Shown here: piece by piece, positions 832-18,296 of the stretch
Position numbering within the stretch: the first letter of the stretch is position 1
Layout of the letters: each line of letters begins with the position of its first letter
Origin: Candidatus Borrarchaeum weybense
GTDB taxonomy: Archaea; Asgardarchaeota; Sifarchaeia; Borrarchaeales; Borrarchaeaceae
Direction: 5' to 3'
Length of the DNA stretch: 64,000 nucleotides
NCBI GenBank assembly: GCA_019057385.1
Contig: JAHQJS010000005.1
Span: 379,130 to 443,129, forward strand
The notes under the pieces: generated by a model
The model's database searches: none
What the model saw: only the letters and a program-made list of their open reading frames with translations
Told to the model about the DNA's origin: nothing
Position numbers and translations under genes: made by a program

Positions 832-1341
832 CTATTTCTTGAACTTGTAGAGAAATTCGCAGTACTCATCTCCCCACTCTGGGCATTTTGTTAACTTAAA
901 GTCTATTTTAGGATTAACTGCCTTGAATCCTTCTTTCACAAATGTGGCACAAGGTTCGCCGCAAACTTTAAAGGCATCAAGAACATTATATTCTTTAGCC
1001 CTCTCCCAGAGCGCACATTTATATGTTCTCCTCACAGCTCTTTCTGGTGTTGACTCAACAATTTCAGATGTGTATTCAGGACCGAGGGCAACTTTGCCAA
1101 CGACAAGGGATAATCTAGCAGCCCCTGCTGCATCTTCTACTGGTATGTTGTATTTTTGCTGAATCATTGGATGAAGCGCCGCACCGCCTCCACCCCACAT
1201 TCCATTTAAAATCTCTATGACTTTTTCTTTACCCAAGGCACCCACAAGTTGCGCCATTAAACCCATTGCTGATCCACTGAAAACATTAGTGGCGAATGCC
1301 CATTTATCTTCAACTGGGACTTTATCAGCTATCTCAGCCAT
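832..1341 (-). CDS. V4R/ATC-hydrolase-like Cys-containing protein (divergent paralog 1)
   Basis: KCALW...C...VNPK...WGDEYCEF motifs shared with other copies; start MAEIAD after purine-rich SD. Confidence 0.75.
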   Translation of the reverse strand: MAEIADKVPVEDKWAFATNVFSGSAMGLMAQLVGALGKEKVIEILNGMWGGGGAALHPMIQQKYNIPVEDAAGAARLSLVVGKVALGPEYTSEIVESTPERAVRRTYKCALWERAKEYNVLDAFKVCGEPCATFVKEGFKAVNPKIDFKLTKCPEWGDEYCEFLYKFKK

Positions 1342-1395
1342 TTTCCATCCTCTCCTCAATTTGGGTACTTATAGTGCGCCCCTCCTCGGCGCTTA
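1342..1395 (-). promoter_or_regulatory. conserved leader element, copy A
   Basis: TAAGCGCCGAGGAGGGGCGCACTATAAGTACCCAAATTGAGGAGAGGATGGAAA-ATG. Confidence 0.7.
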
Positions 1396-1480
1396 GGGTG
1401 TAAAGAGTCACTTTAATGAGAGTCCTTCAAGTTCACTCTTTCAATAGTGACTCCTGTTCATTTGACTGAACTTACCCTAG

Positions 1481-1531
1481 GACTTGTCATATGACAATTA
1501 AAAAATTAAAATTGCCATTAAATGACAAGTC
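1481..1531. promoter_or_regulatory. nested inverted repeat, putative operator
   Basis: GACTTGTCAT...ATGACAAGTC perfect 10-bp IR; contains TTGTCATATGACAA palindrome and TTGCCAT-TAA-ATGACAA. Confidence 0.5.
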
Positions 1532-1692
1532 AAAAATATATTTATAGCAAGTTCTATATATAGTTTTTGCAAATTAATACTTTACAAATATCTAGTTTAT
1601 GCTACATATAAGTAACGGCGTGAAAGACTTTCATAACTACAAGGAAAATCGAAATTGTCTCCCTCCATCACCCCCTAAAATAGGATTTATTT

Positions 1693-2673
1693 TCATTCTT
1701 CTAATTTTACGACGCATTCACAATAGGGATCTCCAGCACACATACAAGTAATCATTTCCCATGTAGCGTTTGGATTTATGGTACTACCAATGACATGATC
1801 GAAGCGATTGCACCAATCACTGATATCCTTATATTCTGTTTGAAACGGACACTTAATAATTCTCCATCTGTTGATTGTTTTCGATCGCTCAAGTATATTG
1901 GTATCCTGACCTGCGAGTTCATGCCAGATGTCCCAGCACTTCCCAATTGTTTCGCAATCATTGCCTTCTAGTTTGAAGATGGTTCGAATTGTATTGGCAA
2001 TATTCTTGATTCTATCACCCATTTCGTTGAACGTTTCATACATTCTAATTGCTTCTAACGCACCATATTTCTCGCGTAGCGCATATAACCAACTTTTATG
2101 GTTAGATGTCCAACCTTTCATAGCAAAATTGTATTTTAGTTCCCATGGTATCTTCATTTTCTTAACCGTAGTCTTCACAGTTACCTCATTCGATGTTTTC
2201 TCTTGTAACCTCCAAACGTATTCGCAATAGGGATCTCCGGCACACATTCCTTTAGGGCGTTCGAGGATAACCTTTGAATTAACAATCTTTCCCATAATAT
2301 CGAAGAAGGATAAGGACCAGTCGCTGATATCTTCGTATCCTGTTTCAAGTGGACACTTGGTGACCTTTCTTCTATTGATTATTTTGGATCGCTTAAGCAA
2401 ACCAGCTTCAGTCCCAGTTAGCTCATCCCAGATGTCAAGTATTTCTCCAATCGTTTCGCAATCGTTGCCTTTAAGGTTGAAGATGGTTAGAATAGCATTT
2501 GCAAAATTCTTTACTCTTTCATCAATTTTTTGAGCCCTCTCAAAAAGATCAAGAGCTGCTGCTGGACCATATTTCTTCCGGTTAGCATATAAGTATCCTC
2601 GATGGCTGGATGCCCAACCTCTCATTGCCCAGTCATGTTTTAGTTCCCAGGGTATCGCTAGTTTCTTAGCCAA
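1693..2673 (-). CDS. tandem two-domain V4R/ATC-hydrolase-like protein (paralog 2)
   Basis: two copies of IPWELK...KCP...DISDW...MCAGDPYCE. Confidence 0.8.
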   Translation of the reverse strand: MAKKLAIPWELKHDWAMRGWASSHRGYLYANRKKYGPAAALDLFERAQKIDERVKNFANAILTIFNLKGNDCETIGEILDIWDELTGTEAGLLKRSKIINRRKVTKCPLETGYEDISDWSLSFFDIMGKIVNSKVILERPKGMCAGDPYCEYVWRLQEKTSNEVTVKTTVKKMKIPWELKYNFAMKGWTSNHKSWLYALREKYGALEAIRMYETFNEMGDRIKNIANTIRTIFKLEGNDCETIGKCWDIWHELAGQDTNILERSKTINRWRIIKCPFQTEYKDISDWCNRFDHVIGSTINPNATWEMITCMCAGDPYCECVVKLEE

Positions 2674-2965
2674 ACTCTCACACGCTCCCCAAAGCAGATT
2701 TCATTTTAAGAACTTCACTCAAGGCTTAAATAATGATGAACTCAAAAAATACGTTTATTATACAGAGTTCTCCCCAATTCCTCGTTACAATAACGCACTT
2801 CAGGTCACAGGATTTCATATGAATTATTCTTTTGATAAAAATATGTATGTGTCATTCGTACATTTATATTTTAAGATTTGTATTATTTTATGATTTAAAA
2901 AAAGTCAACGATAAGTCTACTTCAATGAGTAAATAAAGGGAATACGAAACGGAATTTCAAAAAAT

Positions 2966-3514
2966 TTAGACTTCCTTAAACTCAATGATTGCTTCGCAGT
3001 ATGGGTCTCCCCATGTCAATGTCTTCACGAGCTTATAAGTTAACTTAGGATTAACTGCCCTTAGTCCCTCTTCGCACCATGCTTGATGCCCTGCAGGACA
3101 AACCCAAAGTTCTGGATCTATATGACGCTCATTATATCTTTCCGACCATGGACACTTTGTCCTTCTTAGTACAGCTCTTTTTGGGTTTGCCTCGACTAGT
3201 TCAAACTTGTACTCGGGTCCACCCATTAAGGTTACAGCAACGATGAGCAATTTAACCGCACCTATAGCATCATCAGCAGGTATGTTGAATCTTTCCTTAA
3301 CCATTGGAAAAACTCTCTGTGCTCCTCTACCCATTATCTTTGCTTGAATCTCATTATATTTTTCATAACCCATAACAGGCGAGATGATACCTTCCCCTTC
3401 TCCCAAAAGAGGTGCTGTAGTTTTCGATCCTCTCAACATTGTGAATCCAGTAAGAGTTTTTGCCGTTATTTCCCAACATTTCTGAGTCGGGATCTTCTTC
3501 AGTAGTTCTGCCAT
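2966..3514 (-). CDS. V4R/ATC-hydrolase-like protein (divergent paralog 3)
   Basis: TKCPW...VC...VNPK...WGDPYCE; closest to paralog 1. Confidence 0.75.
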   Translation of the reverse strand: MAELLKKIPTQKCWEITAKTLTGFTMLRGSKTTAPLLGEGEGIISPVMGYEKYNEIQAKIMGRGAQRVFPMVKERFNIPADDAIGAVKLLIVAVTLMGGPEYKFELVEANPKRAVLRRTKCPWSERYNERHIDPELWVCPAGHQAWCEEGLRAVNPKLTYKLVKTLTWGDPYCEAIIEFKEV

Positions 3515-3794
3515 CCCCTATCACTTTTTTAGAAACTATGATTTGTTATATATTCTGATATCAAATATATAATGTCTCTTCTATTCACTCTATTGGCACG
3601 GCCTAAAGAAAAATGCCATGTCGAATAGGTTGTTATATAAATGTGGAGGTTCTAGGCTCACTGAGGCAATAGAAATCGAAACCAAATACGGCTAGAACAA
3701 CTTAACCAAAAATTTAAAAATTCTAACAAAATGGATACTCTTAAATCTTGCTTGTACCTCAATGCAAAGATGTGTACAAAAAATACTAAAAAAT

Positions 3795-3969
3795 GGGCCC
3801 GTGGCTCAATCTTCGTAACATTCTATGTGTACGAAGAGGCGAAGCTTGGTTAGAGCGCACGGCTGATAACCGTGAGATCATGTCCCCATAATGCGGGATG
3901 TTAGCGGATGTCGTGGGTTCGAATGATAGAAGTCCGGTGCTTCATCCGAAATTCCCACCGGGCCCACCA
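3795..3969 (+). tRNA. trnI: tRNA-Ile(GAT) with three non-canonical introns (~3809-3843, ~3877-3909, 3924-3952), encoded CCA
   Basis: removing three hairpin inserts gives GGGCCCGTGGCTCAGCTTGGTTAGAGCGCACGGCT-GAT-AACCGTGAGGTCGTGGGTTCGAATCCCACCGGGCCCACCA, a complete cloverleaf; anticodon 3865-3867. Confidence 0.9.
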
Positions 3970-3998
3970 CTTATTTTCAAGAGATTTATGATTATTAT

Positions 3999-4523
3999 CT
4001 ATTTTCCTTTCATCTTAAAAAAAAGCCAATTCACATCTCTTTTTTCGCCTTTTCTTGGCTTCAGTTTGATAAGAACATATCCACCTCTAAGCTTGTCTCC
4101 ACTAATATTAACTTCTATCTTTGTATCAGTTTTTTTAATTAACTTAAAACTCCCCCTATCCCATATCTCAACGCTACCCGCTCCATATTCGCCTTCGGGG
4201 ATGATTCCACTAAAAGTCGCATACTCTATTGGATGATCCTCAGTTTGAACAGCGAGTCGTTTAACCCCTGTGTTCAGAGGTGGTTCTTTTGGGATTGCCC
4301 AGCTTTTTAATACACCGTCAAATTCCAAACGGAAATCGTAATGTAAATGGCTTGCATCATGCTTTTGAATTACATAAATTGGCTCATCGTTTTCCCTTTT
4401 TTCAACAGGTTTAGGCGGTGGCTCTGAAGTCTTCTTAAAATCTCTTTTCTCTAGATATTTATCCAATGGTTTGGTGGTCTTTTTTTTGAACCCTTCTTCT
4501 TCTAGATATTTATCCAGTGTCAT
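3999..4523 (-). CDS. stand-alone LigD-type 3'-phosphoesterase (PE domain)
   Basis: [46 protein letters not shown] motifs. Confidence 0.92.
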
Positions 4524-4560
4524 TCCTATCCCCTAATCCCTGCAAGTACGTCCCTATAAA

Positions 4561-5208
4561 CTAAATATTTGCGGAGGGACATAGTTCTCGCACAACACAC
4601 TTATTATGTTCTGGCTTTTTTGCATGACAAATCTTTCTCCCGTGATCTATAATCATATATGTAAATTGAAACCACTCTTTTTTTGGAATAATTGCCATTA
4701 AATCTTGCTCTATCTTGTCGGGGTTTTTGTTTTTCGTCAGCCCCAACCTTTGCGAAAGTCTCTTTACATGTGTATCGACTGCAATCCCTTCAATTTTTCC
4801 AAAAGCATTTGAAATCACTATATTAGCAGTTTTCCGAGCCACACCTGGTAAAGATATTAGCCCCTCCATAGTATCAGGAACGTTTCCATCAAACTTTTCT
4901 ATTATGAGTTTACATGCCTCTTGAAGATATTTTGCCTTATTGCGATAGAATCCGGTCGGACGTATATCGTTTTCAAGCTCGGTTCGATCCGCCTCAGCAT
5001 AATCACGTGCTGTTTTATATTTTTTAAATAAATCTTTTGTAACTTCATTCACTTTAACATCTGTAGCTTGGGTGGAGAGAATCGTTGCGATTAACATTTC
5101 TAGAGGATTTGAGAAGTTTAGAGCGACAGTTGGCTTGGGATATTCTTTCTTCAATAATTTTAGGATTTCCTTAATCCTTTCGTTCTCATCCATGTCCTTC
5201 ATCTTCAT
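4561..5208 (-). CDS. nth: endonuclease III
   Basis: HhH LPGVARKTAN, IAVDTHV, C-terminal Fe-S motif (one Cys replaced by His). Confidence 0.95.
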   Translation of the reverse strand: MKMKDMDENERIKEILKLLKKEYPKPTVALNFSNPLEMLIATILSTQATDVKVNEVTKDLFKKYKTARDYAEADRTELENDIRPTGFYRNKAKYLQEACKLIIEKFDGNVPDTMEGLISLPGVARKTANIVISNAFGKIEGIAVDTHVKRLSQRLGLTKNKNPDKIEQDLMAIIPKKEWFQFTYMIIDHGRKICHAKKPEHNKCVVRELCPSANI

Positions 5209-5354
5209 CTCCTCTTTAAATATGAAGTAAAAACAACTATTTAGGTCGGATTATATCAGCTAAATAGGATAAAATCATTGTGTAATGTATATAGAGAGTA
5301 CTATTGTATAAGCCAAAAATAATGATGTGAATAAAATATTTTTGAAAAAAATTG

Positions 5355-5507
5355 CTATTTTTTGTGTTTTTCCTCGAAAGTATCTGCACAACTTGCACAG
5401 CAAAATACGTATTCTTCTCCATCGATTACTCTCTTTTCATTAGCAAACACGCACTTTTCATCATCCATCTCGACTCCACAATCTCCGCATCGAATAAATT
5501 TCACCAT
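5355..5507 (-). CDS. 50-aa TRASH/YHS-like metal-binding protein (not in ORF track)
   Basis: MVKFIRCGDCGVEMDDEKCVFANEKRVIDGEEYVFCCASCADTFEEKHKK*; GGAGG SD upstream. Confidence 0.75.
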   Translation of the reverse strand: MVKFIRCGDCGVEMDDEKCVFANEKRVIDGEEYVFCCASCADTFEEKHKK

Positions 5508-5862
5508 TAAAAAGCCTCCAATCTTCTTGATTCCTAGGTTTATTTATCGCTCTATACTGTTTTCGCATTTTTATTTGTAAAGTTATAGGCATAAAAAATT
5601 AAAACTCATCATTCAATAGCAGATTTGTTGCTTAATTAGCTCATCTTTTCAGCGATTGTTAGTCAAAGAATATTTCAGTTTGCAATATTGAAAACAAATA
5701 TTTGCAGTGTGCTGTATAGATTATTACAAAATTTAAAAGCATTGAAATTCTCTAGACTTGTGGACTGACTTGCAGTAGGGTTTTCCCTATGTAGTTCCTT
5801 CGTGAGCTTGCAAGTAAGCTTAAGATTACATATCTTGAGAAAAAATTTTCAAAGTGCAAGGT

Positions 5863-6366
5863 TTACTCTTCAATTTTGAATATATATTCACAATGGGGAC
5901 CCCCAGCACACATTCCTTTTGGTCGTTCAACAATTGCCTTTGGATTGATAGTTTTGGCAACAATTTTACACCAGATTAAGCCCCAATCGCTGATATCTTT
6001 GAAAGCTGTTTGCCATGGACACTTCGTAATTCTTGTTCTATCAATTGTTTTAGATCGCTCAAGTATAGTACCTTCCTTTCCCGTGAGCTCCCACCATAAG
6101 TTCCAAACCTTCCCTATCGTTTCAGCATCGTTTCCCTTGAGCTTGAAAATTTTTAGAAGTGTTTTTGTTAAATTCTTTATTCTGTCATCCATGGTGCAAA
6201 GTTTTTCGTAAAGTCTGAGCGCTGTATCCGCACCAAATTCCTCACGAATCACATAAAAGAATCCTTTAAGGCAGTTTGCATATCCTCTCATTGCAAAGTC
6301 ATATTTGAATTCCCAAGGTAGCCCTCTCTTTGCCGTCGGATAAGAGGGGTCCTGTTTCTTAGCCAA
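5863..6366 (-). CDS. V4R/ATC-hydrolase-like protein (paralog 4)
   Basis: KRGLPWEFKY...TKCPW...INPK...MCAGGPHCEY. Confidence 0.8.
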   Translation of the reverse strand: MAKKQDPSYPTAKRGLPWEFKYDFAMRGYANCLKGFFYVIREEFGADTALRLYEKLCTMDDRIKNLTKTLLKIFKLKGNDAETIGKVWNLWWELTGKEGTILERSKTIDRTRITKCPWQTAFKDISDWGLIWCKIVAKTINPKAIVERPKGMCAGGPHCEYIFKIEE

Positions 6367-6422
6367 ACTCCCATCCTCTCCTTAAGCTGGGTATTTAGTA
6401 TGGCGCCCCTCCTTGGCGCTTA
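6367..6422 (-). promoter_or_regulatory. conserved leader element, copy B
   Basis: TAAGCGCCAAGGAGGGGCGCCATACTAAATACCCAGCTTAAGGAGAGGATGGGAGT-TTG. Confidence 0.7.
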
Positions 6423-6494
6423 GAAGGAAGAACTCTAGAAGTTACGATTCATCTTGATAGGATCTCTTGAGAGTGTGCGTTTGAGATGCAAGCA

Positions 6495-7001
6495 TCACTC
6501 TTCTATTTTCCAAACAAATTCACAATGCGGATCCCCAGCACACATTAATTTAATTGGTTCAAAAGCAACCTTAGGAGTTACGGTCTTACCAACAATAATA
6601 TTGAAGCTGTTGCACCAACCGCTGAGATCCTTGGGCTCTGTTTTCCACGGGCATTTAGTATATTTAATTCTATTGACGGTTTCAGATCGCTCAAGTATAA
6701 CACCCTCCTGTCCACAGACCTCACCCCAAACGTCAAACACCGCCCCTATTGTTTCGGCATCGTCTCCATCTATCTTAAATATTTCTAGAATGGGTTTTAC
6801 AAAACCTTCCTTTACTCTATCACTCATATTGTCAATCCTTTCTTTTATTCTGACAGCTGCGTCTGCACCGTATTCCTCACGGATAGCGTATAAGAATGCT
6901 CTGAGTATGTTTGCATATCCTCTTATTGCCCAGTCGTATTTGAATTCACACGGTAACCCTCTCTTGGGCATCGGACAGGGGGTATCCCATTTCTTAACCA
7001 T
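6495..7001 (-). CDS. V4R/ATC-hydrolase-like protein (paralog 5)
   Basis: KRGLPCEFKY...TKCPW...GWC...MCAGDPHCEF. Confidence 0.8.
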   Translation of the reverse strand: MVKKWDTPCPMPKRGLPCEFKYDWAIRGYANILRAFLYAIREEYGADAAVRIKERIDNMSDRVKEGFVKPILEIFKIDGDDAETIGAVFDVWGEVCGQEGVILERSETVNRIKYTKCPWKTEPKDLSGWCNSFNIIVGKTVTPKVAFEPIKLMCAGDPHCEFVWKIEE

Positions 7002-7057
7002 ACTTCCTCCTCTCCCTTAATTTGAGTGTTGGCTATAGCGTTTCTCCTCGGCACATA
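7002..7057 (-). promoter_or_regulatory. conserved leader element, degenerate copy C
   Basis: TATGTGCCGAGGAGAAACGCTATAGCCAACACTCAAATTAAGGGAGAGGAGGAAGT-ATG. Confidence 0.55.
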
Positions 7058-7293
7058 AAAGGAAAAATTCTAGACGCATCTAACTGAACTAGAACTCTCC
7101 TTAATCTCTCTCATGATTGCGATACTCTAGTTCTTAGGTATTATAGATACCTATTCTAAGACGAATCTATATATCTTCAATTCTTTCTTTTATACGTTTC
7201 ATCTTGTCGTTGCTATTTTCTGAAATTTAACTAAAATTATCTCCCCCACAATCCACACTGATATTTGCAAATCATTCACAATCAGATATTAGA

Positions 7294-7331
7294 GTGAACT
7301 ACTCCGCCCTTTCGGAAGGAGTCTTCTCGCC
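7294..7331. mobile_element. IS200/IS605 end-like mini hairpin
   Basis: GTGAACTACTCCGCCCTTTCGGAAGGAGTCTTC resembles ends at 13327 and 58658; flanked by GATATTAGA direct repeats. Confidence 0.45.
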
Positions 7332-7350
7332 GATATTAGAATAAATCCAA

Positions 7351-8085
7351 TTAAGCATGAGCACAAAAAATCTCTACAAAATTATTGAAAACGGTTCTTT
7401 GTATTTCCACTTTATCTTGACTTTTCAACTGTGCGATCTTATCTACAAGGTCTACTACGTCTGCGGGTTCTCCTCTTTTTTTTCTATAGGCTACCGGCCC
7501 ATCGCTTTCGGTTAATATACGTGAGGTATCTATACGTTTCACAAAATTCTGTAATTTTGGTGAATAATGAAGTGCTGGGGTAAAGCTCATAAAGTATCCA
7601 TTATCTATTATTCGGGGTAGCAGGTTTTCTGGTCCTTGATACCAATGCAAAATCACATATTTTATATTAAACGACTCCAAAATGTTCAAAGTTTCATTTT
7701 CTGCACCTTTTGAATGTATAATTACGCTTGCTTCTTTTTCTTCAGCGATTCCTAATAACGCTTTAAAGACTTTAAGCTGAGGATCCCACTCATCCTCATT
7801 TTTAATAAAGTGGTGGTCTAAGCCTATCTCACCCATGATCCCCCTATAAGGGATAATCTCTCTGACTTTTTCAGTATCTTGAATACACTTCGAAGCGTTC
7901 CAAGGGTGAATACCGATTGCGGGAATTACAGTATCATATTGTTTAGCAATTTCTGTTGTCTTCTGGAAGGAAGGAATATCCATTGATACACCAATTATAT
8001 ATTCCACATTGGCGGCTTTTGCTCTTAGTAAGACTTCCAAGATATCTTCATATTCATGGAGATGACAATGATTATCTGCATACAT
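7351..8085 (-). CDS. tatD: TatD family hydrolase/DNase
   Basis: DNHCH, GIHPW, GEIGLD, IIHS, ILHW, ESDGP motifs. Confidence 0.92.
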   Translation of the reverse strand: MYADNHCHLHEYEDILEVLLRAKAANVEYIIGVSMDIPSFQKTTEIAKQYDTVIPAIGIHPWNASKCIQDTEKVREIIPYRGIMGEIGLDHHFIKNEDEWDPQLKVFKALLGIAEEKEASVIIHSKGAENETLNILESFNIKYVILHWYQGPENLLPRIIDNGYFMSFTPALHYSPKLQNFVKRIDTSRILTESDGPVAYRKKRGEPADVVDLVDKIAQLKSQDKVEIQRTVFNNFVEIFCAHA

Positions 8086-8243
8086 AGTAACCACTTCAGG
8101 TAAGGTTAAAGCGGACTTCTTATTCATCAATGTGTAGGGCTTGATTAAAAGTATATTAACAAGATTAACTATTTATTTAGGAATTAATTACGCTTTCTCT
8201 TGTCAGGCAGGTGAGCGGATTTAAAGGGAAAAAACAGTTTTAG

Positions 8244-9113
8244 TTGCTGAACCAAATGGTGTTCAAAAAAATTGAACGTTTGACTGCATTTATAATTCCT
8301 AACCAAGTCCGACAAGAAATTGAAGAGAAGGGTATTATTAGTTATGTTTTTTATCAAGCAAGAAGATTCTCGGAAATAATTTTCTCCAAATTGGTGGAAC
8401 AAAACATACCTTTGTTTTCCTGGGCAGATAATTGGATGTTCTCATTTTCTAAGGAGCGGTTGCAAGCATATATGGATATGGAAAAATGCTTGGAAGATAT
8501 ATTATCTACTTGTGAGTTTTATGAGGGATATTGGCACTACAAAAATATCCGTGCTTATCAAATACCAAGTGAAGTAAAAGCACTTCTAAAAGAGGTCAAA
8601 AAAAATGGTACTTCTATTATACTGGATATCGGGACGTTTGATGGCGGAACATTATACCTTTGGACAAGGTTTCTTGAAGGGCAGAAAATTATAACTATAG
8701 ATTTACCATTCCCATATGGCTATCCTTCAGCGAAGACGAAATTATTCAGATTTTTTGATCCCAATAAAGAATTGCATTTTTTACGTGGCTCGTCTTTTAG
8801 CAACGATATGGTTAATAAAATCGCTAATATCTTAAAAGATAATAAGATTGACTTTCTCTTTATTGATGGTGATCACAGTTACGAAGGTGTAAAAAAAGAT
8901 TTTGAGCGATATAAACCTCTTATTCGTGATGGGGGTATTATAGCCTTTCATGATATTGTGAGTAATAGGTACGGTGTTTCAAAATTCTGGAACGAAATTA
9001 AGCATAAGTATGTTTCAAAAGAAATAATTGCCCCAGTACATGAAATGCAGGCTTATGCACGGTCTAATATTGACAAACAGGGCTGGGGAGGGATAGGTGT
9101 TTTATATATCTGA
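8244..9113 (+). CDS. class I SAM-dependent methyltransferase (Methyltransf_24-like)
   Basis: LDIGT.DGG, DFLFIDGDHSYEGV, GGIIAFHD. Confidence 0.85.
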   Translation: MLNQMVFKKIERLTAFIIPNQVRQEIEEKGIISYVFYQARRFSEIIFSKLVEQNIPLFSWADNWMFSFSKERLQAYMDMEKCLEDILSTCEFYEGYWHYKNIRAYQIPSEVKALLKEVKKNGTSIILDIGTFDGGTLYLWTRFLEGQKIITIDLPFPYGYPSAKTKLFRFFDPNKELHFLRGSSFSNDMVNKIANILKDNKIDFLFIDGDHSYEGVKKDFERYKPLIRDGGIIAFHDIVSNRYGVSKFWNEIKHKYVSKEIIAPVHEMQAYARSNIDKQGWGGIGVLYI

Positions 9114-9201
9114 TTTCTCTCAATTAAAAAAGTAGATAGCAGTAAAAAAAGTTAAAAGAAACTCGCACTTTAGGAGAAGAGACTTCCCCTCTCCTTTACG
9201 A

Positions 9202-10104
9202 CTATTTTTCTTTTTTCTTTGCGAGTAATTCCTTTGAAATATCATATGCTTCCTCAAAACTAAAAACGCCCGTAGTACCTTTGATATTCTTTAATGCCTT
9301 CTTTTCTGTCTTTAGTTTTAAATCTCCGATCGCTAAAGCTCCTATGCCTATTTTTCCTGGCATAAATTCTTCTTTGTCATCTAATGAACCAAGTCCTTCT
9401 ACGCCAAGTGGTGGGACCGCATTAATATCAGCAGCAACTTTAAAACGATCTAAACGCTCCATTGTCCCTTTTGATATGAGTTGATAACCCGCTTTTCCAG
9501 CTGCGATAATTGCATCTGCATCTTTTGATGCCTCATAGATTTCTTCTGCATTTGCGCCTTGAGCGTATCTCACATGTATCTGGTACTCCTGACTTAATCT
9601 TTCGGCGATGCCTTTAGCTCTATCGAATTTTCGGGAACTGATCAGAGGGTTTCCGCCGCTTTTTGCTGACAATATTGCGGCAACTTGCCCTACAGGTCCT
9701 GTTCCCGCTAAAATAGTGATATTCTTACCCTCAAAGCCACCCATTTCCACTAAAGCTTCTTCTGTTTTTGCAACGGCCGCGGCAGCAGTCGTATATGCAC
9801 CCCTTGGGTCTATCATAATAGGAACCTCGAAGGGAGGAACCATTGCCTTCTTTGCTTCTTCTAACACCTGCAAAACTTTTGGAAGGTCACTACCTCCAAT
9901 GAATAGGGCAGTGTATTGGCATCCTTTTACTCCTCGGCTGAATATCGCATCTTGAACAAGGTTTTTTACATCCTCTGGTTCAACATTTGAAAAACAGTGC
10001 ACATGGTCATAGCCAGAATCCACAGACATGTTTATATCAAAGGGCGATGCATATTTGTCCGTATCAATTAAATAGATAATATACTCTTTTCCCACATGTT
10101 TCAC
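9202..10104 (-). CDS. mtdB: NAD(P)-dependent methylene-H4MPT/H4F dehydrogenase (MtdA/B/C family)
   Basis: SPFDINM..D.G.D, DAIFSRG, DP.GAYTTAAA, GTGPVG, D.NAVPP.G, GALAIG.LK. Confidence 0.85.
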   Translation of the reverse strand: MKHVGKEYIIYLIDTDKYASPFDINMSVDSGYDHVHCFSNVEPEDVKNLVQDAIFSRGVKGCQYTALFIGGSDLPKVLQVLEEAKKAMVPPFEVPIMIDPRGAYTTAAAAVAKTEEALVEMGGFEGKNITILAGTGPVGQVAAILSAKSGGNPLISSRKFDRAKGIAERLSQEYQIHVRYAQGANAEEIYEASKDADAIIAAGKAGYQLISKGTMERLDRFKVAADINAVPPLGVEGLGSLDDKEEFMPGKIGIGALAIGDLKLKTEKKALKNIKGTTGVFSFEEAYDISKELLAKKKEK

Positions 10105-10354
10105 CTCGTATGTTATATTCTTTATCTGGACTCAAAAAGCTTTATCCTTTCTATTTTCAACGATTTTTTAAACTTTTAAGAATATTTTCAATTCTGAATT
10201 GAGTAAAATTCACCTTTATTAAAAGTAACTGATACAAAAGAAGACCGTTCTTTCCTTAGAATTTCATTTTTGCACATAAACATCATTTTAAATTGCGAAT
10301 TCAGAAAACATAAAAACTGAAACCATATTTCCTTCTCTCAAAGGTGGGCTCTAA

Positions 10355-11314
10355 TTGACGTTAGCTGTTGAAATAAAAAATCTTACGAAAATCTATCCTG
10401 GAAGGGGCATCCTAAATAAAGCACCAGCTGTAACGGCGTTAGATGATGTAAATCTAGAAATCAAGAAGGGAACAATATATGGTCTTCTAGGTCCTAATGG
10501 AGCTGGAAAAACTACCTTGATTCATATTTTAGCTGGCGTTCTCTTGCCAACCACCGGCACTGCAGAGGTCTTTGGACATGATGTCGTACGGAAGGCACGG
10601 GAGGTAAGATCTTTAAGTAATTATGGTGCTGGACAAGGCTCACTTTTTTGGAATCTTTCCCCAAAAGAGAACTTGCTTTATTATGCGAAACTTTATGGCC
10701 TTCCCAATTCTGAGGCTGTTGAAAAAATAAATAACCTATTGGAATTCTTTGGCCTGAAGGAACGAGCCAATCTTAAAAGTGCTTATTTGTCCTCGGGGTT
10801 AAAACAGCGTGTCAAACTTATCAAAACGCTTCTCAACGACCCTAAATTATTACTGCTGGATGAACCCACCTTAGGTCTCGATGTTGACATCGCCAGAAAA
10901 ATACGTGCTTACATTCAAGAACTGTCCCATGAAAAAGAAATGACAATATTGCTCACTTCACATAATATGTACGAAGTAGATGAATTATGTGATGAAATAG
11001 CTCTTATTGATAAAGGGCGAATCGTTTCTATAGGAACTCCGGATGAACTTAAAAAGCAGGTTTCTGAGTTTGAATCCCTGGAGTTGTCCTTCTCAAACTA
11101 TGATGGTGATCCTTCCTCATTCTTAGATGATCTAGTTTTGAGATCAACATTTAGAGATGGAGCACTGGTGCTTCACGTCTCTGATATTGATTCTTCAATA
11201 GATGCCATTCTTCGACGCCTGTTATCCCATAAATTTGTGATTTCCTCAATAAACACGAGACGGACAACTTTAGAGGATGTGTTTCTAAACTTAACAGGAC
11301 GGGGGTTGAAGTAA
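10355..11314 (+). CDS. ABC-2 type exporter ATP-binding subunit
   Basis: GPNGAGKTT, LSSG, LLLLDEPT, LTSH. Confidence 0.92.
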   Translation: MTLAVEIKNLTKIYPGRGILNKAPAVTALDDVNLEIKKGTIYGLLGPNGAGKTTLIHILAGVLLPTTGTAEVFGHDVVRKAREVRSLSNYGAGQGSLFWNLSPKENLLYYAKLYGLPNSEAVEKINNLLEFFGLKERANLKSAYLSSGLKQRVKLIKTLLNDPKLLLLDEPTLGLDVDIARKIRAYIQELSHEKEMTILLTSHNMYEVDELCDEIALIDKGRIVSIGTPDELKKQVSEFESLELSFSNYDGDPSSFLDDLVLRSTFRDGALVLHVSDIDSSIDAILRRLLSHKFVISSINTRRTTLEDVFLNLTGRGLK

Positions 11315-11315
11315 A

Positions 11316-12128
11316 ATGCTCAGAGTTTATCTTCGTCAAGTATATGGCTTCACTTACAGACAGACTCACAATATCGCTAAAAGTCCGATTGGAATCTTTG
11401 AAATTGTAGTGTGGCCATTAGCGAGTTTATTCTCCATAGGATTTCTGGGATCTTTTGTAGACGTTTCAGCTAGCACAAACATATCTTTTGTTACATTCAT
11501 TTTGATTGGACAATGCGGCTGGTCTTTTAGTTATGTTGTTCAGCAAGCCTTGAGTTATGGCCTCATGCATTCGATGTGGAGTGGTACTCTTATCGACATG
11601 ATGGCTAGCCCTGCAGATGAAAATCAGTTTATCATTGGGAATGCACTCGCAGGAGTTATTAAGGGAGTAGTAGTTCTTGCTGTCATGGGAGTCTGTAGCT
11701 TAGTTGCATTTAATGTTAACATCTTCGCCGGTGGAGTTTTTGCAGTCTTTCTAATCATATTCAGTGTCTTTCTTGCGGCAGTTTCGTTAGGCCTTATAGT
11801 TCTTATATTAATTTTCTATTTTGGCCAAGAGGCCCAGGTAACGGCGTGGACGATCACTGGCTTAACTGTCCTTTTCAGCGGCGTTTTCTACCCTGTAACA
11901 ATTTTACCCCCTCTAATTAGGCCGTTAAGTTACAGCATTCCTCTTACATATGCGTTCATTGCGTGGCGAGAAATAACCCTTCAAGGTGCAAGCATGGCTG
12001 ATGTATCGTTTGTACTGCTTCAAATGGGCGTTTCCAGTGTACTATGGCTCGTAATAACGTGGTCTGTTTGTCTATTCACGATAAAAAGAGCAAGGAAAAT
12101 TGGAATGATTTCGCAACTTTCTGATTGA
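11316..12128 (+). CDS. ABC-2 type permease
   Basis: six hydrophobic segments, FSGVFYPV..LP motif; directly follows the ATPase gene. Confidence 0.88.
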   Translation: MLRVYLRQVYGFTYRQTHNIAKSPIGIFEIVVWPLASLFSIGFLGSFVDVSASTNISFVTFILIGQCGWSFSYVVQQALSYGLMHSMWSGTLIDMMASPADENQFIIGNALAGVIKGVVVLAVMGVCSLVAFNVNIFAGGVFAVFLIIFSVFLAAVSLGLIVLILIFYFGQEAQVTAWTITGLTVLFSGVFYPVTILPPLIRPLSYSIPLTYAFIAWREITLQGASMADVSFVLLQMGVSSVLWLVITWSVCLFTIKRARKIGMISQLSD

Positions 12129-12531
12129 ATCTAGATTTATTATTATTGTTACTGAGTTATGAAAATTAATAATCGCAAGAGATGAAAGTAAATAACACCG
12201 GTAATTATATACATAAATTTCTTATGAGTGCTAACGATACTAGGAATATGAAATCGCAATAGAGCAGGAGAATAGGGTTTTTTCAAGCGTAGATTTGCTT
12301 AACAATAACAAAGATACGTCTAAAAGAGTAATATCTCGCTAAATACAATCCCTTCCACCCATGCTCCACGTTTGTCCCAGTTCCCCATGATTAGTCGCAA
12401 CTGTTGATCCAATCGAAAAATTTTATTTTAAGAACGTCTAAAAGTATATGACCGAGTAAAGTATAAAAGTAACAAGAACGCATACATAGACTTATAAAAA
12501 TTGCTCTAGATTCTCGAATCTTGATTCAATT

Positions 12532-12586
12532 TAAGTGCCAAGGAGGGGCGCAAAATAAGTGCCCAATCTAAGGGAGGGAGGACAAT
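12532..12586 (+). promoter_or_regulatory. conserved leader element, copy D (before a non-paralogous gene)
   Basis: TAAGTGCCAAGGAGGGGCGCAAAATAAGTGCCCAATCTAAGGGAGGGAGGACAAT-ATG. Confidence 0.7.
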
Positions 12587-13312
12587 ATGAAAGTATTAGC
12601 ATTCAACTGCAGTCCAAGTATGGACAAGGGAAACACAGCTCTGATCTTCAATCCCTTTGTTGAGGGGATGAAGGAAGCTGGGGCTGAAGTCGAACTTTTC
12701 TACACGAACAAGCTCAAGATCAACTTTTGCACCGGGCAGGTTAATTGCTGGTTCAAGCATCCCGGAAAGTGCTATCAAGACGATGACATGAACATGCTCT
12801 ACCCCAAACTACGCGAAGCGGACGTCTGGGTGTTCGCCACTCCGGTTTATTGGGACGGAGTCACCGGACCGATGAAGACACTTATTGACCGAACGGCGCT
12901 CCCGCTTTTCGGGCCATTTTACGAGCTACGCGATGGTCATACGCGGACTATTTGGCGCGAAGGAACCACGTCCACAAAAGTCGTGTTGGTATCCGTTGGT
13001 GGCCAGTGGGAGATGGACATCTTTGACCCGCTACTTGTCTACATGAAGGCCATGTGCAAGAACTCAAACTTTGAATTCACAGGGGCTTTGCTGAGACCTC
13101 ATACACATGCAGTGAAGCCTATGATAGAAAGTGGTGCTGTAAACGACATCTTCGAAGCGGCGAAAGAGGCTGGTCGCCAACTCGTGAAAAATGGTAAAAT
13201 GTCCGCCGAAATCCTAAAGACCGTTAGCCGTGAACTTGTACCCCAGAAGCCGTATATGGAAGGGTTCAATCAGTTTATCCAACAGATTCTAGACTCAATG
13301 AAGAAAGAATAG
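12587..13312 (+). CDS. flavodoxin-family / iron-sulfur flavoprotein (NADPH-dependent FMN reductase-like)
   Basis: MKVLAFNCSP...GNT, CTG..NCW....G.C...DDM, ATPVYW.G..G.MK..IDR. Confidence 0.88.
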   Translation: MKVLAFNCSPSMDKGNTALIFNPFVEGMKEAGAEVELFYTNKLKINFCTGQVNCWFKHPGKCYQDDDMNMLYPKLREADVWVFATPVYWDGVTGPMKTLIDRTALPLFGPFYELRDGHTRTIWREGTTSTKVVLVSVGGQWEMDIFDPLLVYMKAMCKNSNFEFTGALLRPHTHAVKPMIESGAVNDIFEAAKEAGRQLVKNGKMSAEILKTVSRELVPQKPYMEGFNQFIQQILDSMKKE

Positions 13313-13326
13313 TATCGACGGATAGG

Positions 13327-13545
13327 GTCAACTACCCCACCCTAAAGGGTAGGTGCTTGGGAAACCAAGTTCCTTAGTTGATTAGAGGGCTTCCCTTTGT
13401 GGGAGCAGCAGTTGTTTAGGTCATGACACCCTGGGGTGCTCCACTAGCCCCTTGCTCTGTCGTCGGTGGTTAAAAGTCCTGAGGGGTAGGGACGGTGCTG
13501 CCGATGCCAAAAGCCTTTACAACAGCCTCGAAGTGGACCTACTTC
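13327..13545 (+). ncRNA. IscB-type omegaRNA / HEARO-like RNA scaffold (3' end approximate)
   Basis: GTCAACTA/TAGTTGAT helix, CTTGG-GAAA-CCAAG hairpin, GTTGTTTAGG/CCTTTACAAC helix, ACACCCTGGGGTGCTCCACTAGCCCC with TCCACT(13440)/AGTGGA(13532) pseudoknot. Confidence 0.82.
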
Positions 13546-13705
13546 CTTGGTGTTGGGAGCGGCGGGACTTGAGAGTACCCGTCATTAAAACACCACCCGA
13601 GGTTGGGTACACCAACCCCTGTCTCCGCAGAAAGGGTTGTGTGAACAACATCCGACCTCAATTCCTCTCCGCCCTAAAGGGCTGGAGTCTCCTTGAGGTA
13701 ATCTT
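13327..13705 (+). mobile_element. non-autonomous IS200/IS605-family (IscB-type) element with both ends and no protein gene
   Basis: left end GTCAACTACCCCACCCTAAAGGG; right end CAATTCCTCTCCGCCCTAAAGGGCTGGAGTCTCCTTGAGG; followed by ATGA. Confidence 0.8.
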
Positions 13706-13871
13706 ATGATGAGGGACTTAAGGCAAGTAATTCTAATATATCTTACACACATACGAAACTTATACCAAGATTAGAACCCTACACGAATTTTTTATCGAGC
13801 TTAAGAATGAGTAATCATTTGGGACTAATACTCAAACGCTTGAACATCTAGATTAAGGGAAGGAGGAGACA

Positions 13872-14348
13872 ATGGCTATGAAAATAACGATACCGTGGGA
13901 ACTAAAATACAAATATGCTAGGGGAATGTTGACAACTCTGTTCAAAGGATTCATGTATGTGATCCGTGAGAGACATGGCGCGGCAGAAGCACTCGAAATA
14001 CATCAACTGGTCAATAAAATGGATAATAGAATACAGAATATGATCCGCACACTTAAAGATGTTTTCAAAATAGAGGAAAACGATATCGAAGCGCTTAGAA
14101 GTGTGTGGGAGATCTATCTGGACCTTACTGGGATTATAAGCACCACACTTGAGCAGTCTGAAAAACTTTGGAGACATAAAATTACTACCTGTGCCTGGGT
14201 AACAGAGCCCAAAGATCTCAGCGATTGGTGCTATAACTACTGTAGCCTTATGAACAAGTTCATAAATCCAAAGACGACCCTTGAGCGACCTAAAGCCATG
14301 TGTACAGGAGATTCAGAATGTGAATTTGTGGTTAAGATTGAAGAGTGA
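13872..14348 (+). CDS. V4R/ATC-hydrolase-like protein (paralog 6)
   Basis: IPWELKY...TTCAW...DWC...INPK...MCTGDSECEF; 3' half of the leader (GATTAAGGGAAGGAGGAGACA) upstream. Confidence 0.8.
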   Translation: MAMKITIPWELKYKYARGMLTTLFKGFMYVIRERHGAAEALEIHQLVNKMDNRIQNMIRTLKDVFKIEENDIEALRSVWEIYLDLTGIISTTLEQSEKLWRHKITTCAWVTEPKDLSDWCYNYCSLMNKFINPKTTLERPKAMCTGDSECEFVVKIEE

Positions 14349-14418
14349 CCCTTGCTCCTTATTATGAAATATATCCAAAAATAGTACAAAAACAAACAAT
14401 TTAGGGGATATGAGGGAC

Positions 14419-14925
14419 TTGGCTAAGAAATTGCAGCCGCCTTGTGCGTCGCCCAAAAGAGGGCTACCTTGGGAACTAAAATATAACTATGTTAGAGGAC
14501 AAATGACAACTCTGTTCAAAGGATTCCTATATGCAATTCGTGAAGAATATGGTGCTGCTGCCGCACTCAAAATTACTGAAAAGATGTGGAGATTTAAGGA
14601 TAGAGTAAAAAACATGATAAATACATTCTTAAGCGTTTTCGAAATACAGGGAAACGATCTTGAAAAATTAGCGGAGTTTTGGGACGTCTATTGGGAGATT
14701 CAAGGATCTGAGGCCATTATACTTGAGCGATCTAAAACAATTAATAGAACTAAAATCACGAAATGTCCATGGAGTACACCAGATCCCAAAGATATCAGCG
14801 GCTGGTGCGAAATCTGGGCAAATATTGTTAGCGAGAGTATAAATCCCAAAATTTCCACTAAACGACTTAAAGGAATGTGTGCAGGGGATCCGTATTGTGA
14901 ATACGTTTGGAGAATAGAAGACTGA
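14419..14925 (+). CDS. V4R/ATC-hydrolase-like protein (paralog 7); TTG start inferred from paralog alignment
   Basis: AKKLQPPCASPKRGLPWELKY...TKCPW...GWC...MCAGDPYCEY. Confidence 0.8.
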   Translation: MAKKLQPPCASPKRGLPWELKYNYVRGQMTTLFKGFLYAIREEYGAAAALKITEKMWRFKDRVKNMINTFLSVFEIQGNDLEKLAEFWDVYWEIQGSEAIILERSKTINRTKITKCPWSTPDPKDISGWCEIWANIVSESINPKISTKRLKGMCAGDPYCEYVWRIED

Positions 14926-14997
14926 ATCAAACATTTCAAAATCGTTCTCTAAAGTTGTCGGATATAGTAAACTCAGATTGAGGGAGAGGAGGAGACT

Positions 14998-15474
14998 ATG
15001 ACTGAGAAAATATCGATACCTTTGTTATTAAAACATGATTTTACCTTGAGAGCTTATTCATCTATCGTCAAAGGATTTTTATACGCGATCCGCGAGAAAC
15101 ATGGTGGAAACGAAGCGCTGGAAACTTACGTAAGGGTCTGCACAATGGATGATAGAATAAAGAATCTTACAAATGCACTTCTAGATATCTTCCAACTAAA
15201 GGGGAGTGATGCTGAAACAATAGGAAAGTGGTTTGAAGTCTGGTTTGAACTCACTGCATTTGAATATGCTACACTTGAGCGGTCTAAGACAAGTAGTAGA
15301 GTTAAAGTCACCAAATGTCCGTTCAAAACTGAGCCCAAAGATCTCAGTGACTGGGCTTTAATCTTCACAAATCTTGTTTCAAAGACCATAAATCCAAAAG
15401 CTACAGTTGAACGCCCTAAAGCAATGTGTGCTGGGGATTCCTATTGCGAATACATTTGGAAAATAGAAGAATGA
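14998..15474 (+). CDS. V4R/ATC-hydrolase-like protein (paralog 8)
   Basis: TKCPF...DLSDW...INPK...MCAGDSYCEY; 3' half of the leader (ACTCAGATTGAGGGAGAGGAGGAGACT) upstream. Confidence 0.8.
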   Translation: MTEKISIPLLLKHDFTLRAYSSIVKGFLYAIREKHGGNEALETYVRVCTMDDRIKNLTNALLDIFQLKGSDAETIGKWFEVWFELTAFEYATLERSKTSSRVKVTKCPFKTEPKDLSDWALIFTNLVSKTINPKATVERPKAMCAGDSYCEYIWKIEE

Positions 15475-17366: not shown

Positions 17367-18296
17367 CTATTTGACAGTTTCTTTCAAGTTCCATATCGAC
17401 ATTCCTGAGACCGTAGCATCGGTTTCCACAGGTCTGTACCACTGTTTTTTAGTTCCAACTTTTGCTCTTGCCTTCCAACGCATGCCCTTCGGCACAGCTT
17501 CTATAATTTCAAGAAGTTTATCAATCTTGGCGCTGATATTGGTTATATCTGACTCTGACAGAGCATCAATACCTGGTGCAAATTCTTTAATTCCCTTGAG
17601 ATTTTCTGTCACAGAATAATAGAAACCCCAGTCTTTTGCCATGAGCTCGGATATGTATGTCGCATTGATAGCATTCTCTTCTATTCCTTCCTGGACATCA
17701 TGAGCCCTAAGCAGAAGGATCGAATCCTTCAGATCTTTGCCACTGAAAACCTCAGTAATTTGCAGTTTTCCAAGTAGCAAATCACTAACACTGATGGTCA
17801 ACGGATCGATTTCGAGCCGATCTTTGAAGTGAATATCGTGATTAAATTTTAGAATTTCATAAAACATATCAATAAAATACCATCCCTTTGGATGATAGAA
17901 AATATGTCGCTTCGTAGTTGCGCTGGAGATAGTGGTTCGTCGCTTTATGAAAGGTTTGCCATAAACTTGGTTTCCATAGTCCTCGAAAAAACGAGGTATT
18001 GTTTTTTTCTGATATTTACTATAGGTCATGAAATCCAAATCAGTGAATTCCTGTTCACCTTCTAGCCTCGTTAACTTCTTAGCTAATTCATCAAATTCAC
18101 CTGAATGCATCCTAATTCCCATGCCGCCAATGACTCTGATAATTATATTACGCTTTTGCGCTTCTTCTACAATTTGTTTAGCATTTTGAAAAAACACTTC
18201 TGTGGGAACAATTCCTCCCCATTCCTCTGGCATTTCAACCTCGATTTCGTCCATTCCCATTAACCAAACCATAACCTTCCCTCTTGAATTCGTCAT
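17367..18296 (-). CDS. uncharacterised nucleotidyltransferase-fold protein (start uncertain)
   Basis: IGG.GI..H and TDLDF motifs resemble the Pol-beta NTase signature. Confidence 0.55.
   Translation of the reverse strand: MTNSRGKVMVWLMGMDEIEVEMPEEWGGIVPTEVFFQNAKQIVEEAQKRNIIIRVIGGMGIRMHSGEFDELAKKLTRLEGEQEFTDLDFMTYSKYQKKTIPRFFEDYGNQVYGKPFIKRRTTISSATTKRHIFYHPKGWYFIDMFYEILKFNHDIHFKDRLEIDPLTISVSDLLLGKLQITEVFSGKDLKDSILLLRAHDVQEGIEENAINATYISELMAKDWGFYYSVTENLKGIKEFAPGIDALSESDITNISAKIDKLLEIIEAVPKGMRWKARAKVGTKKQWYRPVETDATVSGMSIWNLKETVK

Follow-up and report, generated by a model that had tools for sequence, protein, structure and literature searches.

What are the eight small, related genes gathered in the first 17 kb of a stretch of DNA from the Asgard archaeon Candidatus Borrarchaeum weybense, and what could so many similar proteins do? 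The stretch, called the window below, comprises 64,000 nucleotides (nt) of contig C5 (C5:379130-443129) in a 4.18-Mb genome of 8 contigs, designated here G000. An initial annotation of this DNA had described the genes as a local expansion of unfused V4R-like proteins and as a possible sensor array with diversified ligand pockets. We found that they are members of one family with the Bet3/TRAPPC3-V4R-H-NOX fold, that its sequence places it in the ATC_hydrolase/MetOD1/DUF6125 branch, and that its expansion runs across the whole genome at the genus level and is nearly confined to one Asgard genus. Our confidence in the family, the fold and the expansion is high. As to function, the reading that we prefer, and to which we give an even chance, is a lineage-specific repertoire of dimeric, metal-clamped V4R/Bet3-fold binders of small molecules on the ATC_hydrolase/MetOD1 branch, some wired to two-component proteins and a subset sharing a leader element.

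All eight open reading frames (ORFs; 158-326 amino acids, aa; nine domains) were found at the coordinates given by the initial annotation, and the proteins of these eight genes are indeed unfused. They belong to two types, S and L, and were compared with their counterparts in other genomes of the same genus, designated G002, G003 and G004, as follows:

832-1359, minus strand: L-type V4R/ATC_hydrolase-like gene, 175-aa ORF; PF14196 25 bits (cut-off 28.1), L clade in the tree
1693-2673, minus strand: tandem S-S two-domain gene, 326 aa; two profile matches within a single ORF
2966-3514, minus strand: L-type gene, 182 aa, with Cys, Cys-x3-His and Cys as ligand candidates; PF14196 20.4 bits
5863-6366, minus strand: S-type gene, 167 aa, TTG start; the ORF whose protein was modelled with AlphaFold2 (AF2)
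6495-7001, minus strand: S-type gene, 168 aa; MetOD1 PF18546 28.8 bits (cut-off 23.8)
13872-14348, plus strand: S-type gene, 158 aa, first gene of a triplet, in a 2.8-kb segment without counterpart in G004
14410-14925, plus strand: S-type gene, 171 aa, second gene of the triplet, in the same 2.8-kb segment found in G000 only
14998-15474, plus strand: S-type gene, 158 aa, third gene of the triplet, adjacent to a kinase gene; position kept in G002, G003 and G004

In the end-to-end alignment of the nine domains, P, D, C (K-C-P/A) and G, C, E (GD..CE) were invariant, and all nine share a C-terminal end located 6-7 residues past the CE motif; the K-C-P/A, INPK and GD..CE motifs and the equivalent end that had been claimed for these proteins were thus confirmed. 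The six genes (seven domains) singled out as close paralogs are the S-type genes, which are 45-63% identical among themselves and carry the PWELKY, LERS and MCAGDPYCE motifs. The L-type genes, 832-1359 and 2966-3514, are divergent, encode proteins of about 182 aa and are about 20% identical to the S-type. Profile-profile comparison of S with L gave a probability of 98% (E 3.6e-14), and at that probability the two subfamilies are predicted to be homologous. Translation of 832-1359 probably begins with the ATG at 1341, which gives 169 aa and has a Shine-Dalgarno sequence in front.

The AF2 model of 5863-6366 had a predicted local distance difference test value (pLDDT) of 91.5 and consisted of three long helices followed by two hairpins with helix D between them. 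When this model was searched with Foldseek, TRAPPC3/Bet3, PoxR, MopR, DmpR, Thor-TRAPPC3 and H-NOX were matched, and the two-layer alpha/beta fold of V4R with its 4-stranded sheet was recognized at a probability of 1.00. Structural alignment with VIA-align gave Z scores of 12-12.7 for Bet3/TRAPPC3 (best Z 12.7, root-mean-square deviation (rmsd) 3.0 Å over 144 residues), 10.7 for MopR/PoxR (rmsd 4.2-4.4 Å over 147-148 residues), 9.7 for Thor-TRAPPC3 (7YH2/7YH3; rmsd 4.0 Å over 141-142 residues) and about 7 for H-NOX and MJ1460 (rmsd 3.9-5.0 Å over 130 residues). Foldseek and VIA-align therefore bear out the V4R/TRAPP-Bet3/H-NOX fold that had been proposed.

The matches to family profiles were weaker. 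The eight window proteins scored 11.5-25 bits against PF14196 (ATC_hydrolase), all under the 28.1-bit cut-off; elsewhere in G000, five or six L-type paralogs passed it, and 18 of the 19 L-types matched at E<0.01. Hence, we filed the family as ATC_hydrolase-like at the superfamily level and not as strict members. Against PF18546 (MetOD1), 6495-7001 passed the cut-off and three other window proteins scored 13-19 bits. The nearest clusters in the ESM Atlas are labelled ATC_hydrolase, MetOD1 and DUF6125, with a Thorarchaeota TRAPP cluster farther off. Collectively, the Pfam scores, the L-type matches and these neighbours uphold, at the superfamily level, the earlier assignment to the ATC_hydrolase/MetOD1 group. 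No match to PF02830 (V4R) was found in the eight window proteins, the eight matches in G000 (five over the cut-off) being in other genes, and PF04051 (Bet3/TRAPPC3) had no match in the family and a single one in G000, at C6:261101-261469, outside the family. The one strong PF14196 member of G000 (79.5 bits) is, likewise, a gene separate from the window proteins of the family. NCBIfam assigned no family to the window proteins, and because neither the S profile nor the L profile found a relative among PDB sequences, the link to solved structures is by fold only. The family is, in sum, a lineage-specific form of an already known ligand-binding domain family.

A profile built from the nine domains detected 35 ORFs with 37 domains (18 S and 19 L, assigned by profile score) on five contigs of G000. 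Eight of these ORFs, all L genes, are located 10-19 kb upstream of the window, so that 17 domains fall within 35 kb at this end of contig C5. The arrays are therefore real, but the expansion is not local, as had been supposed; it extends over the genome and the genus, with 35 genes on five contigs. In the complete G004 genome, from the same genus, 38 matches were found, and 1, 6 and 11 in three incomplete genomes of the genus. Outside the genus, 0-5 matches per genome were found in a sample of 301 Asgard genomes (G000 included), with at most the best 12 candidates of each genome considered. A HMMER search of 1.84 billion cluster representatives returned 419 matches at E<=1e-3 and only 13 at E<=1e-30, and two-domain relatives of 326-406 aa proved common in the family; the named hosts of the relatives fetched with the profile are Ca. 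Borrarchaeum yapensis and Ca. Sifarchaeum marinoarchaea, which places G000 in the class Sifarchaeia. In the tree of all G000 and G004 copies, S and L formed two deep clades in which 1:1 orthologs were mixed with species-specific duplicates, and the copy number varies between species. The S subfamily is a separate clade essentially restricted to Sifarchaeia. Assuming about 4,000 genes per 4.18 Mb, the genus gives roughly 1% of its genes to one branch of one fold, and the copies come as arrays and covalent tandems, some with a leader element of their own.

Next, the oligomeric state was addressed by prediction. With two copies of the 5863-6366 protein, a homodimer score of 0.83 was obtained, against 0.00 for the best of 3 controls; in the calibration set, of 30 proteins solved as one-chain pairs, 20 attained this mark, as did 1 of 23 solved as single chains. 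Three runs agreed in at least 85% of the contacts, the pLDDT of the partner was at least 85, and the predicted interface was formed by helices a1 and a2, with the symmetric contacts 25:25, 32:32 and 36:36. Since dimers of this fold have already been solved, the score may partly reflect likeness to, or memory of, those structures. The tandem gene 1693-2673 was modelled with a pLDDT of 92.9 and a predicted template modelling score of 0.88 as one rigid unit in which the fold is repeated twice, and this model, together with the frequent two-domain relatives, hints at a dimer independently of the two-copy prediction. With moderate confidence, then, the models point to a symmetric homodimer formed through the N-terminal helices. 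The working unit would likely be such a dimer, held by the two N-terminal helices, and tandem-fused genes such as 1693-2673 would encode covalent dimers.

The conserved cysteines suggest how each domain may be held together. In S-type copies, Cys is found at the end of beta2 in 30 of 31, in the MCAGD loop in 31 of 31, in the YCE motif in 30 of 31 and in helix D in 15 of 31, with an invariant Glu directly after the last Cys. In L-type copies it occupies the end of beta2 (40/40), the position before helix D (38/40) and YCE (40/40), and the L consensus has a His at x3 after the Cys that precedes helix D, replaced in some copies by Cys. Taken over both types, the conserved Cys columns fall at the end of beta2, before or within helix D and in the beta3-beta4 hairpin. 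Both sets of columns contain the three-Cys cluster that Galperin et al. (2018) described as common to MetOD1, V4R and ATC hydrolase (PMC5847659). Tran et al. (2024) reported Cys-bound Zn at an equivalent place in Thor-TRAPPC3 and PoxR, where it joins the sheet to helix D, the ligand positions varying among relatives (PMC10933270). As far as conserved columns can tell, the Cys pattern fits that metal clamp, in line with the metal-binding group of domains named in the initial annotation. Three or four Cys, with His or Glu, would probably hold a structural metal, by analogy most likely Zn, that ties the beta-sheet to helix D and closes an internal cavity as in PoxR and Thor-TRAPPC3; our confidence in such a clamp is moderate. 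Two copies depart from the pattern or the frame: the S paralog at C6:375523-376032 (minus strand) of G000 has Gly instead of the last conserved Cys (GDPYGE), and the S copy at C3:25033-25506 of G004 contains an in-frame TGA. Both may be decaying copies.

We then asked how the paralogs differ. Between G000 and G004, the gene-wide ratio of non-synonymous to synonymous divergence (dN/dS, or omega) ranged from 0.07 to 0.5. The S genes of the window showed dN of 0.15-0.37 and omega of 0.2-0.3, as compared with dN of 0.04-0.20 and omega of 0.06-0.20 for housekeeping neighbours; therefore, the S genes evolve faster, under overall purifying selection. The third triplet gene, 14998-15474, is 73% identical to its G004 ortholog with a dN/dS of 0.20, the 2966-3514 protein is 90% identical to its ortholog, and the 832-1359 protein is 99% identical, with a dS of 0.019 versus 0.2-1.5 for its neighbours. 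The positions of the predicted interface were more variable than the rest (1.61 vs. 1.25 bits, permutation P 0.011), and helix D holds 7 of the 25 most variable sites. This variability fits a diversified pairing together with a diversified cavity wall, as placed by the model, and stops short of proving a pocket. The diversified pockets of the initial annotation are in line with the variable sites in helix D, which lines the cavity in relatives, but the predicted dimer interface is at least as variable, and gene-level positive selection gave no sign.

Some observations concern the plasticity of the locus. Window positions 860-1680, which hold the L gene 832-1359 and about 300 nt of its leader, have about 100% DNA identity to G004 between flanks of 60-90%, which suggests either a recent exchange between species or an unusually strong constraint. 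The S pair 5863-7001 is located elsewhere than its G004 counterparts. The syntenic contig of G004 lacks the 2.8-kb segment 12142-14975, in which a leader, an FMN_red flavoprotein gene, a HEARO RNA and two S genes are found; either G000 gained it by insertion or G004 lost it by deletion. HEARO RNA is the RNA of IscB-type mobile elements; the copy here, between the flavoprotein gene and the S triplet, is a full-length IscB-type omega RNA at 13327-13542 on the plus strand (129.7 bits, cut-off 83), with no IscB ORF beside it. We considered the arrays as defence or mobile cargo and rejected this idea: HEARO RNA, DUF5615 and UPF0175 are neighbours of mobile-element and toxin-antitoxin-like kinds, with nothing further in support, and PADLOC found no defence family for the eight proteins or two neighbours.

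A subset of the genes is preceded by a leader composed, in this order, of a 17-nt hairpin (stem GCGCC/GGCGC, loop RAGGAGG), the box TCTATAAGTACCCA, a Shine-Dalgarno sequence and the start codon. The hairpin pattern occurs three times in the window, where chance would give 0.01 matches. The elements located there are:

1376-1392, minus strand: hairpin GCGCC-GAGGAGG-GGCGC, exact pattern match, about 35 nt before the ATG at 1341
1393-1480, minus strand: structured segment, outer stem TAGGGT/ACCCTA around two hairpins; RNA fold z-score -3.28 versus shuffles
6403-6419, minus strand: hairpin GCGCC-AAGGAGG-GGCGC, exact pattern match, before 5863-6366
12535-12551, plus strand: hairpin with one G-U change, before the FMN_red flavoprotein gene 12587-13312

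A degenerate hairpin was also observed at about 7038-7054, upstream of 6495-7001. G000 contains nine hairpin copies, seven of them directly before family genes of both S and L types; the remaining two precede a DUF3303 gene just upstream of an S gene and the FMN_red gene of the window. Degenerate copies precede further family genes of G000, and about one third of the family genes carry the leader. Among relatives, 14 more copies were found, at least nine of them before family genes by their coordinates. A 105-aa DUF3303 gene is headed by the hairpin in both species (L014, G004 C3, 14492-16075; L038, G000 C4, 5733-6050), and in G004 so is an Old Yellow Enzyme (Oxidored_FMN) gene (L014, C3, 14492-16075). 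Two variant copies keep the stem through G-U pairs that are workable on the sense strand only, which hints that the leader is an RNA element. In the structured segment 1393-1480, three pairs of the outer stem showed two-sided compensatory changes relative to a paralogous leader, in a three-sequence alignment that makes this a weak test. In three other sediment metagenomes, the bin with the leader was several-fold deeper than adjacent bins, and several metagenome contigs end at 1360 and 1394, as a multi-copy element would predict. A different bin, 3696-3909, was 40-150 times deeper than its neighbours in all four of four metagenomes, as a universally conserved sequence would predict.

The earlier claim of co-regulation through a shared leader is thus partly borne out. 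The element is nearly family-specific, with seven of the nine genomic copies before family genes, but it reaches two or three of the eight window genes and also heads flavoprotein and DUF3303 genes. We infer that this dedicated 5' leader would mark a subset of the family, plus flavin oxidoreductase genes, as one co-regulated set.

Beyond the triplet lies the orphan kinase that the initial annotation had linked to it:

15497-17212, minus strand: PAS-PAS-HisKA-HATPase_c histidine kinase (Pfam), convergent with the triplet across a 22-nt gap

The gap was given correctly, and the adjacency is kept in three relatives: an S-type gene and a kinase ortholog (78-80% identity) meet tail to tail in each of G002, G003 and G004, 28-52 nt apart. 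However, the genes are convergent, so the triplet and the kinase are not co-transcribed, and the four genomes belong to one genus, so the kept synteny is expected by descent. Upstream of the kinase are a 309-aa ORF at 17367-18296 (minus strand) without Pfam or PADLOC match and then a 509-aa ORF at 18332-19861 (minus strand). A second locus of G000, C4:553-558 kb (L031 C4:550000-562000, 3494-9165), contains a co-directional string in which a PAS kinase, a REC protein and a REC-PAS-PAS protein are followed by an L-type gene and then by a leucine-rich-repeat protein; its kinase is a paralog of the window kinase 15497-17212, and the string has counterparts in G002, G003 and G004. REC-PAS-MetOD1 fusions are known in methanogens (PMC5847659), and by analogy the C4 string reads like a split form of that architecture. 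Moreover, a family gene occurs within 6 kb of four of the eight kinase loci, where 0.44 would be expected (P ~7e-4, in a test chosen post hoc). The kinase link of the window triplet is weak, and the C4 operon and the enrichment of kinase loci give it indirect support.

The other neighbours are diverse and include a LigD phosphoesterase, endonuclease III, TatD, a 2-oxoacid:ferredoxin oxidoreductase operon, a radical SAM gene with LplA and a glutamine synthetase. Eukaryote-like genes were noticed within a few kb of family genes, namely UQ_con (L032 6199-6663, minus strand) and roadblock/LC7 (L037 7903-8331, minus strand). In another Asgard family, genome G011 (C3, L042, 4706-6700, minus strand, protein P0162), the domain forms the C-terminus of a protein of 656-664 aa with CoA_binding_2 and Succ_CoA_lig domains, of the ADP-forming acyl-CoA synthetase alpha type, whose gene adjoins those of a CitMHS transporter and a 399-aa V4R protein. 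In G048 (C24, L045, 788-10761), three stand-alone ATC_hydrolase-like genes alternate with two genes for AMP-forming acyl-CoA ligases, and the same string holds an aldehyde:ferredoxin oxidoreductase, an amine-oxidase-like flavoprotein and an LplA-like gene. By analogy with this synthetase fusion and these ligase neighbours, an acyl or organic-acid ligand, or an enzymatic role, stays in play. Searching for longer fused relatives with the L profile gave none at E<=1e-5; this was a weak search, and HMMER found tandems and one CoA-ligase fusion.

How these observations translate into a function was then weighed. In the repertoire of binders that we prefer, these small cytoplasmic proteins would most likely bind small, probably hydrophobic or organic-acid-type ligands, the paralogs would be distinguished by their helix D, as the cavity wall, and by their dimer interface, as the determinant of pairing specificity, and the state of the ligand site would be relayed in trans, sometimes to two-component proteins. 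Several results weigh against it. Every dN/dS pair stays below 0.5, with no sign of positive selection at the gene level, and tight kinase links number only two, one of them convergent. A REC fusion was found neither in G000 nor among the ten longer relatives scanned, in which the only foreign fusion partner was the ADP-forming acyl-CoA synthetase alpha-type module, and the neighbourhoods of the family are heterogeneous, with no recurring partner. In addition, the polar residues of the GND.E loop, INPK and GDPYCE are conserved in all S and L paralogs, a set that suits a shared chemistry, for example that of an enzyme active site, at least as well as diverse sensors. This last point also speaks for the proposal of ATC-hydrolase-type enzymes, small metal-dependent hydrolases or ring-openers acting on S or N heterocyclic or acyl compounds, each paralog on a different substrate. 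It agrees with the best Pfam affinity, which is to ATC_hydrolase, with the fusion to an acyl-CoA synthetase module and the pairing with AMP-forming ligases, aldehyde:ferredoxin oxidoreductase and LplA in other Asgard relatives, with the G000 copies located after the 2-oxoacid:ferredoxin oxidoreductase operon and between the radical-SAM gene and LplA, and with the enzymatic activity that Galperin et al. proposed for MetOD1 (PMC5847659). We consider it unlikely, however: the eight window proteins stay below the PF14196 cut-off while the clear member is a separate gene, all solved structures of the fold that were matched are binding or scaffolding proteins, and some 37 paralogs with variable dimer interfaces would be unusual for a metabolic enzyme.

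If the cysteines instead bound Fe or acted as a thiol switch, the family could be redox or electrophile stress proteins engaged in detoxification with flavin oxidoreductases. The genes that share the leader, FMN_red (window 12587), Old Yellow Enzyme (G004) and DUF3303 (G004 and G000), are compatible with this, as are a neighbouring ESM Atlas cluster with a rubredoxin C-terminal domain label (score 0.88, a lead only) and the pink crystals reported for Thor-TRAPPC3 (PMC10933270). Yet the metal of Thor-TRAPPC3 was identified as Zn in that work, the leader stands on only about one third of the family genes, and the loss of the last Cys in the GDPYGE paralog suits a structural site better than an essential redox centre, making this idea distinctly improbable. 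We regard in much the same way the triplet 13872-15474 as the sensory input of the adjacent orphan PAS kinase: the conserved tail-to-tail adjacency in G002, G003 and G004 and the general enrichment of kinase loci near family genes speak for it, whereas convergence rules out co-transcription, shared descent within the genus accounts for the synteny, two of the three triplet genes sit in the segment absent from G004, and two PAS domains are already built into the kinase itself. Highly improbable, finally, is an expanded Bet3 family of TRAPP-like scaffold subunits that form homo- or heterodimeric cores regulating GTPases as in eukaryotic TRAPP. In its favour, structural similarity is highest to eukaryotic Bet3/TRAPPC3 (Z 12-12.7), the same N-terminal helices form the predicted dimer, a variable interface could encode pairing rules, and one tandem copy has a roadblock gene 3 kb away; against these, the family has no PF04051 signal (the sole genomic match being elsewhere), the Thor TRAPP cluster is farther than ATC_hydrolase in the ESM Atlas, genes for longins or small GTPases did not recur in the neighbourhoods that were scanned, and eukaryotic Bet3 has lost the metal site conserved in the window family (PMC10933270). 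The repertoire of small-molecule binders can also be drawn in a bolder form, in which about 37 stand-alone dimeric receptors, with the interface setting the pairing and helix D the ligand, signal in trans to PAS kinases and REC-PAS proteins, in the manner of a REC-PAS-MetOD1 architecture split into separate proteins, a subset being switched by the structured RNA leader. This form we hold to be rather unlikely; if true, it would be a modular signalling layer undescribed in archaea, built on the fold that eukaryotes use in TRAPP.

What is at stake differs between these outcomes. Asgard proteins of the V4R/TRAPPC3 fold are under discussion as precursors of a core subunit of eukaryotic trafficking, and we know of none with a known ligand or partner. 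The approximately 37 related proteins are a natural set for the side-by-side comparison of binding, dimer specificity and regulation. If some copies signal to PAS kinases, the orphan MetOD1 output domain gains a function; should they prove to be ordinary small binders or enzymes, what remains is a well-documented expansion within one lineage and not much else.

It remains to set the family beside known systems. H-NOX haem sensors are often stand-alone and act in trans on kinases. The H-NOX (HNOB) domain shares the superfamily fold (Z about 7), but the structural match is much weaker than the others, and the window family has a Cys cluster. Thor-TRAPPC3 (7YH2, 7YH3) and eukaryotic Bet3/TRAPPC3 (1WC9, 6AQ3) are closer, with fold Z scores of 9.7 and 12.7, stand-alone proteins of about 160 aa and a homodimer through the N-terminal helices, which is predicted in the window family; of the two, the Thor protein alone has the Zn-Cys site, and it too comes from an Asgard host. 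Unlike them, the window family has no sequence match to PF04051 or to PDB chains and belongs to a different branch of the superfamily. The V4R domains of PoxR, MopR and DmpR (5FRU, 5KBE, 6IY8) are similar in fold (Z 10-10.7) and in the predicted dimerization through the N-terminal helix. They have a Cys-based Zn site running from sheet to helix and an internal ligand cavity (PMC10933270), a site that the Cys pattern of the window family would fit judging from its residues, whereas the window family has no PF02830 match and no AAA+/HTH fusion, and its candidate metal ligands are partly shifted.

The suggestion that the genes form a system of an undescribed kind was not supported. Galperin et al. 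(2018) had already published stand-alone MetOD1 and REC-MetOD1 proteins and their likeness to V4R, HNOB and ATC hydrolase (PMC5847659), and Tran et al. (2024) had described Zn-binding, dimeric, cavity-bearing Asgard V4R/TRAPPC3 proteins (PMC10933270). The nearest known relatives are MetOD1 (PF18546), ATC_hydrolase (PF14196) and DUF6125 (PF19620), which share with the window family a size of about 140-180 aa, the same Cys cluster, stand-alone and tandem forms, weak to moderate matches of hidden Markov models, the nearest ESM Atlas clusters and, at one locus, an occurrence beside two-component genes. What sets the window family apart from them is an S subfamily that forms a Sifarchaeia-restricted clade mostly below the Pfam cut-offs, proteins free of REC fusion, a dedicated leader and about 37 copies per genome where the known families have few.

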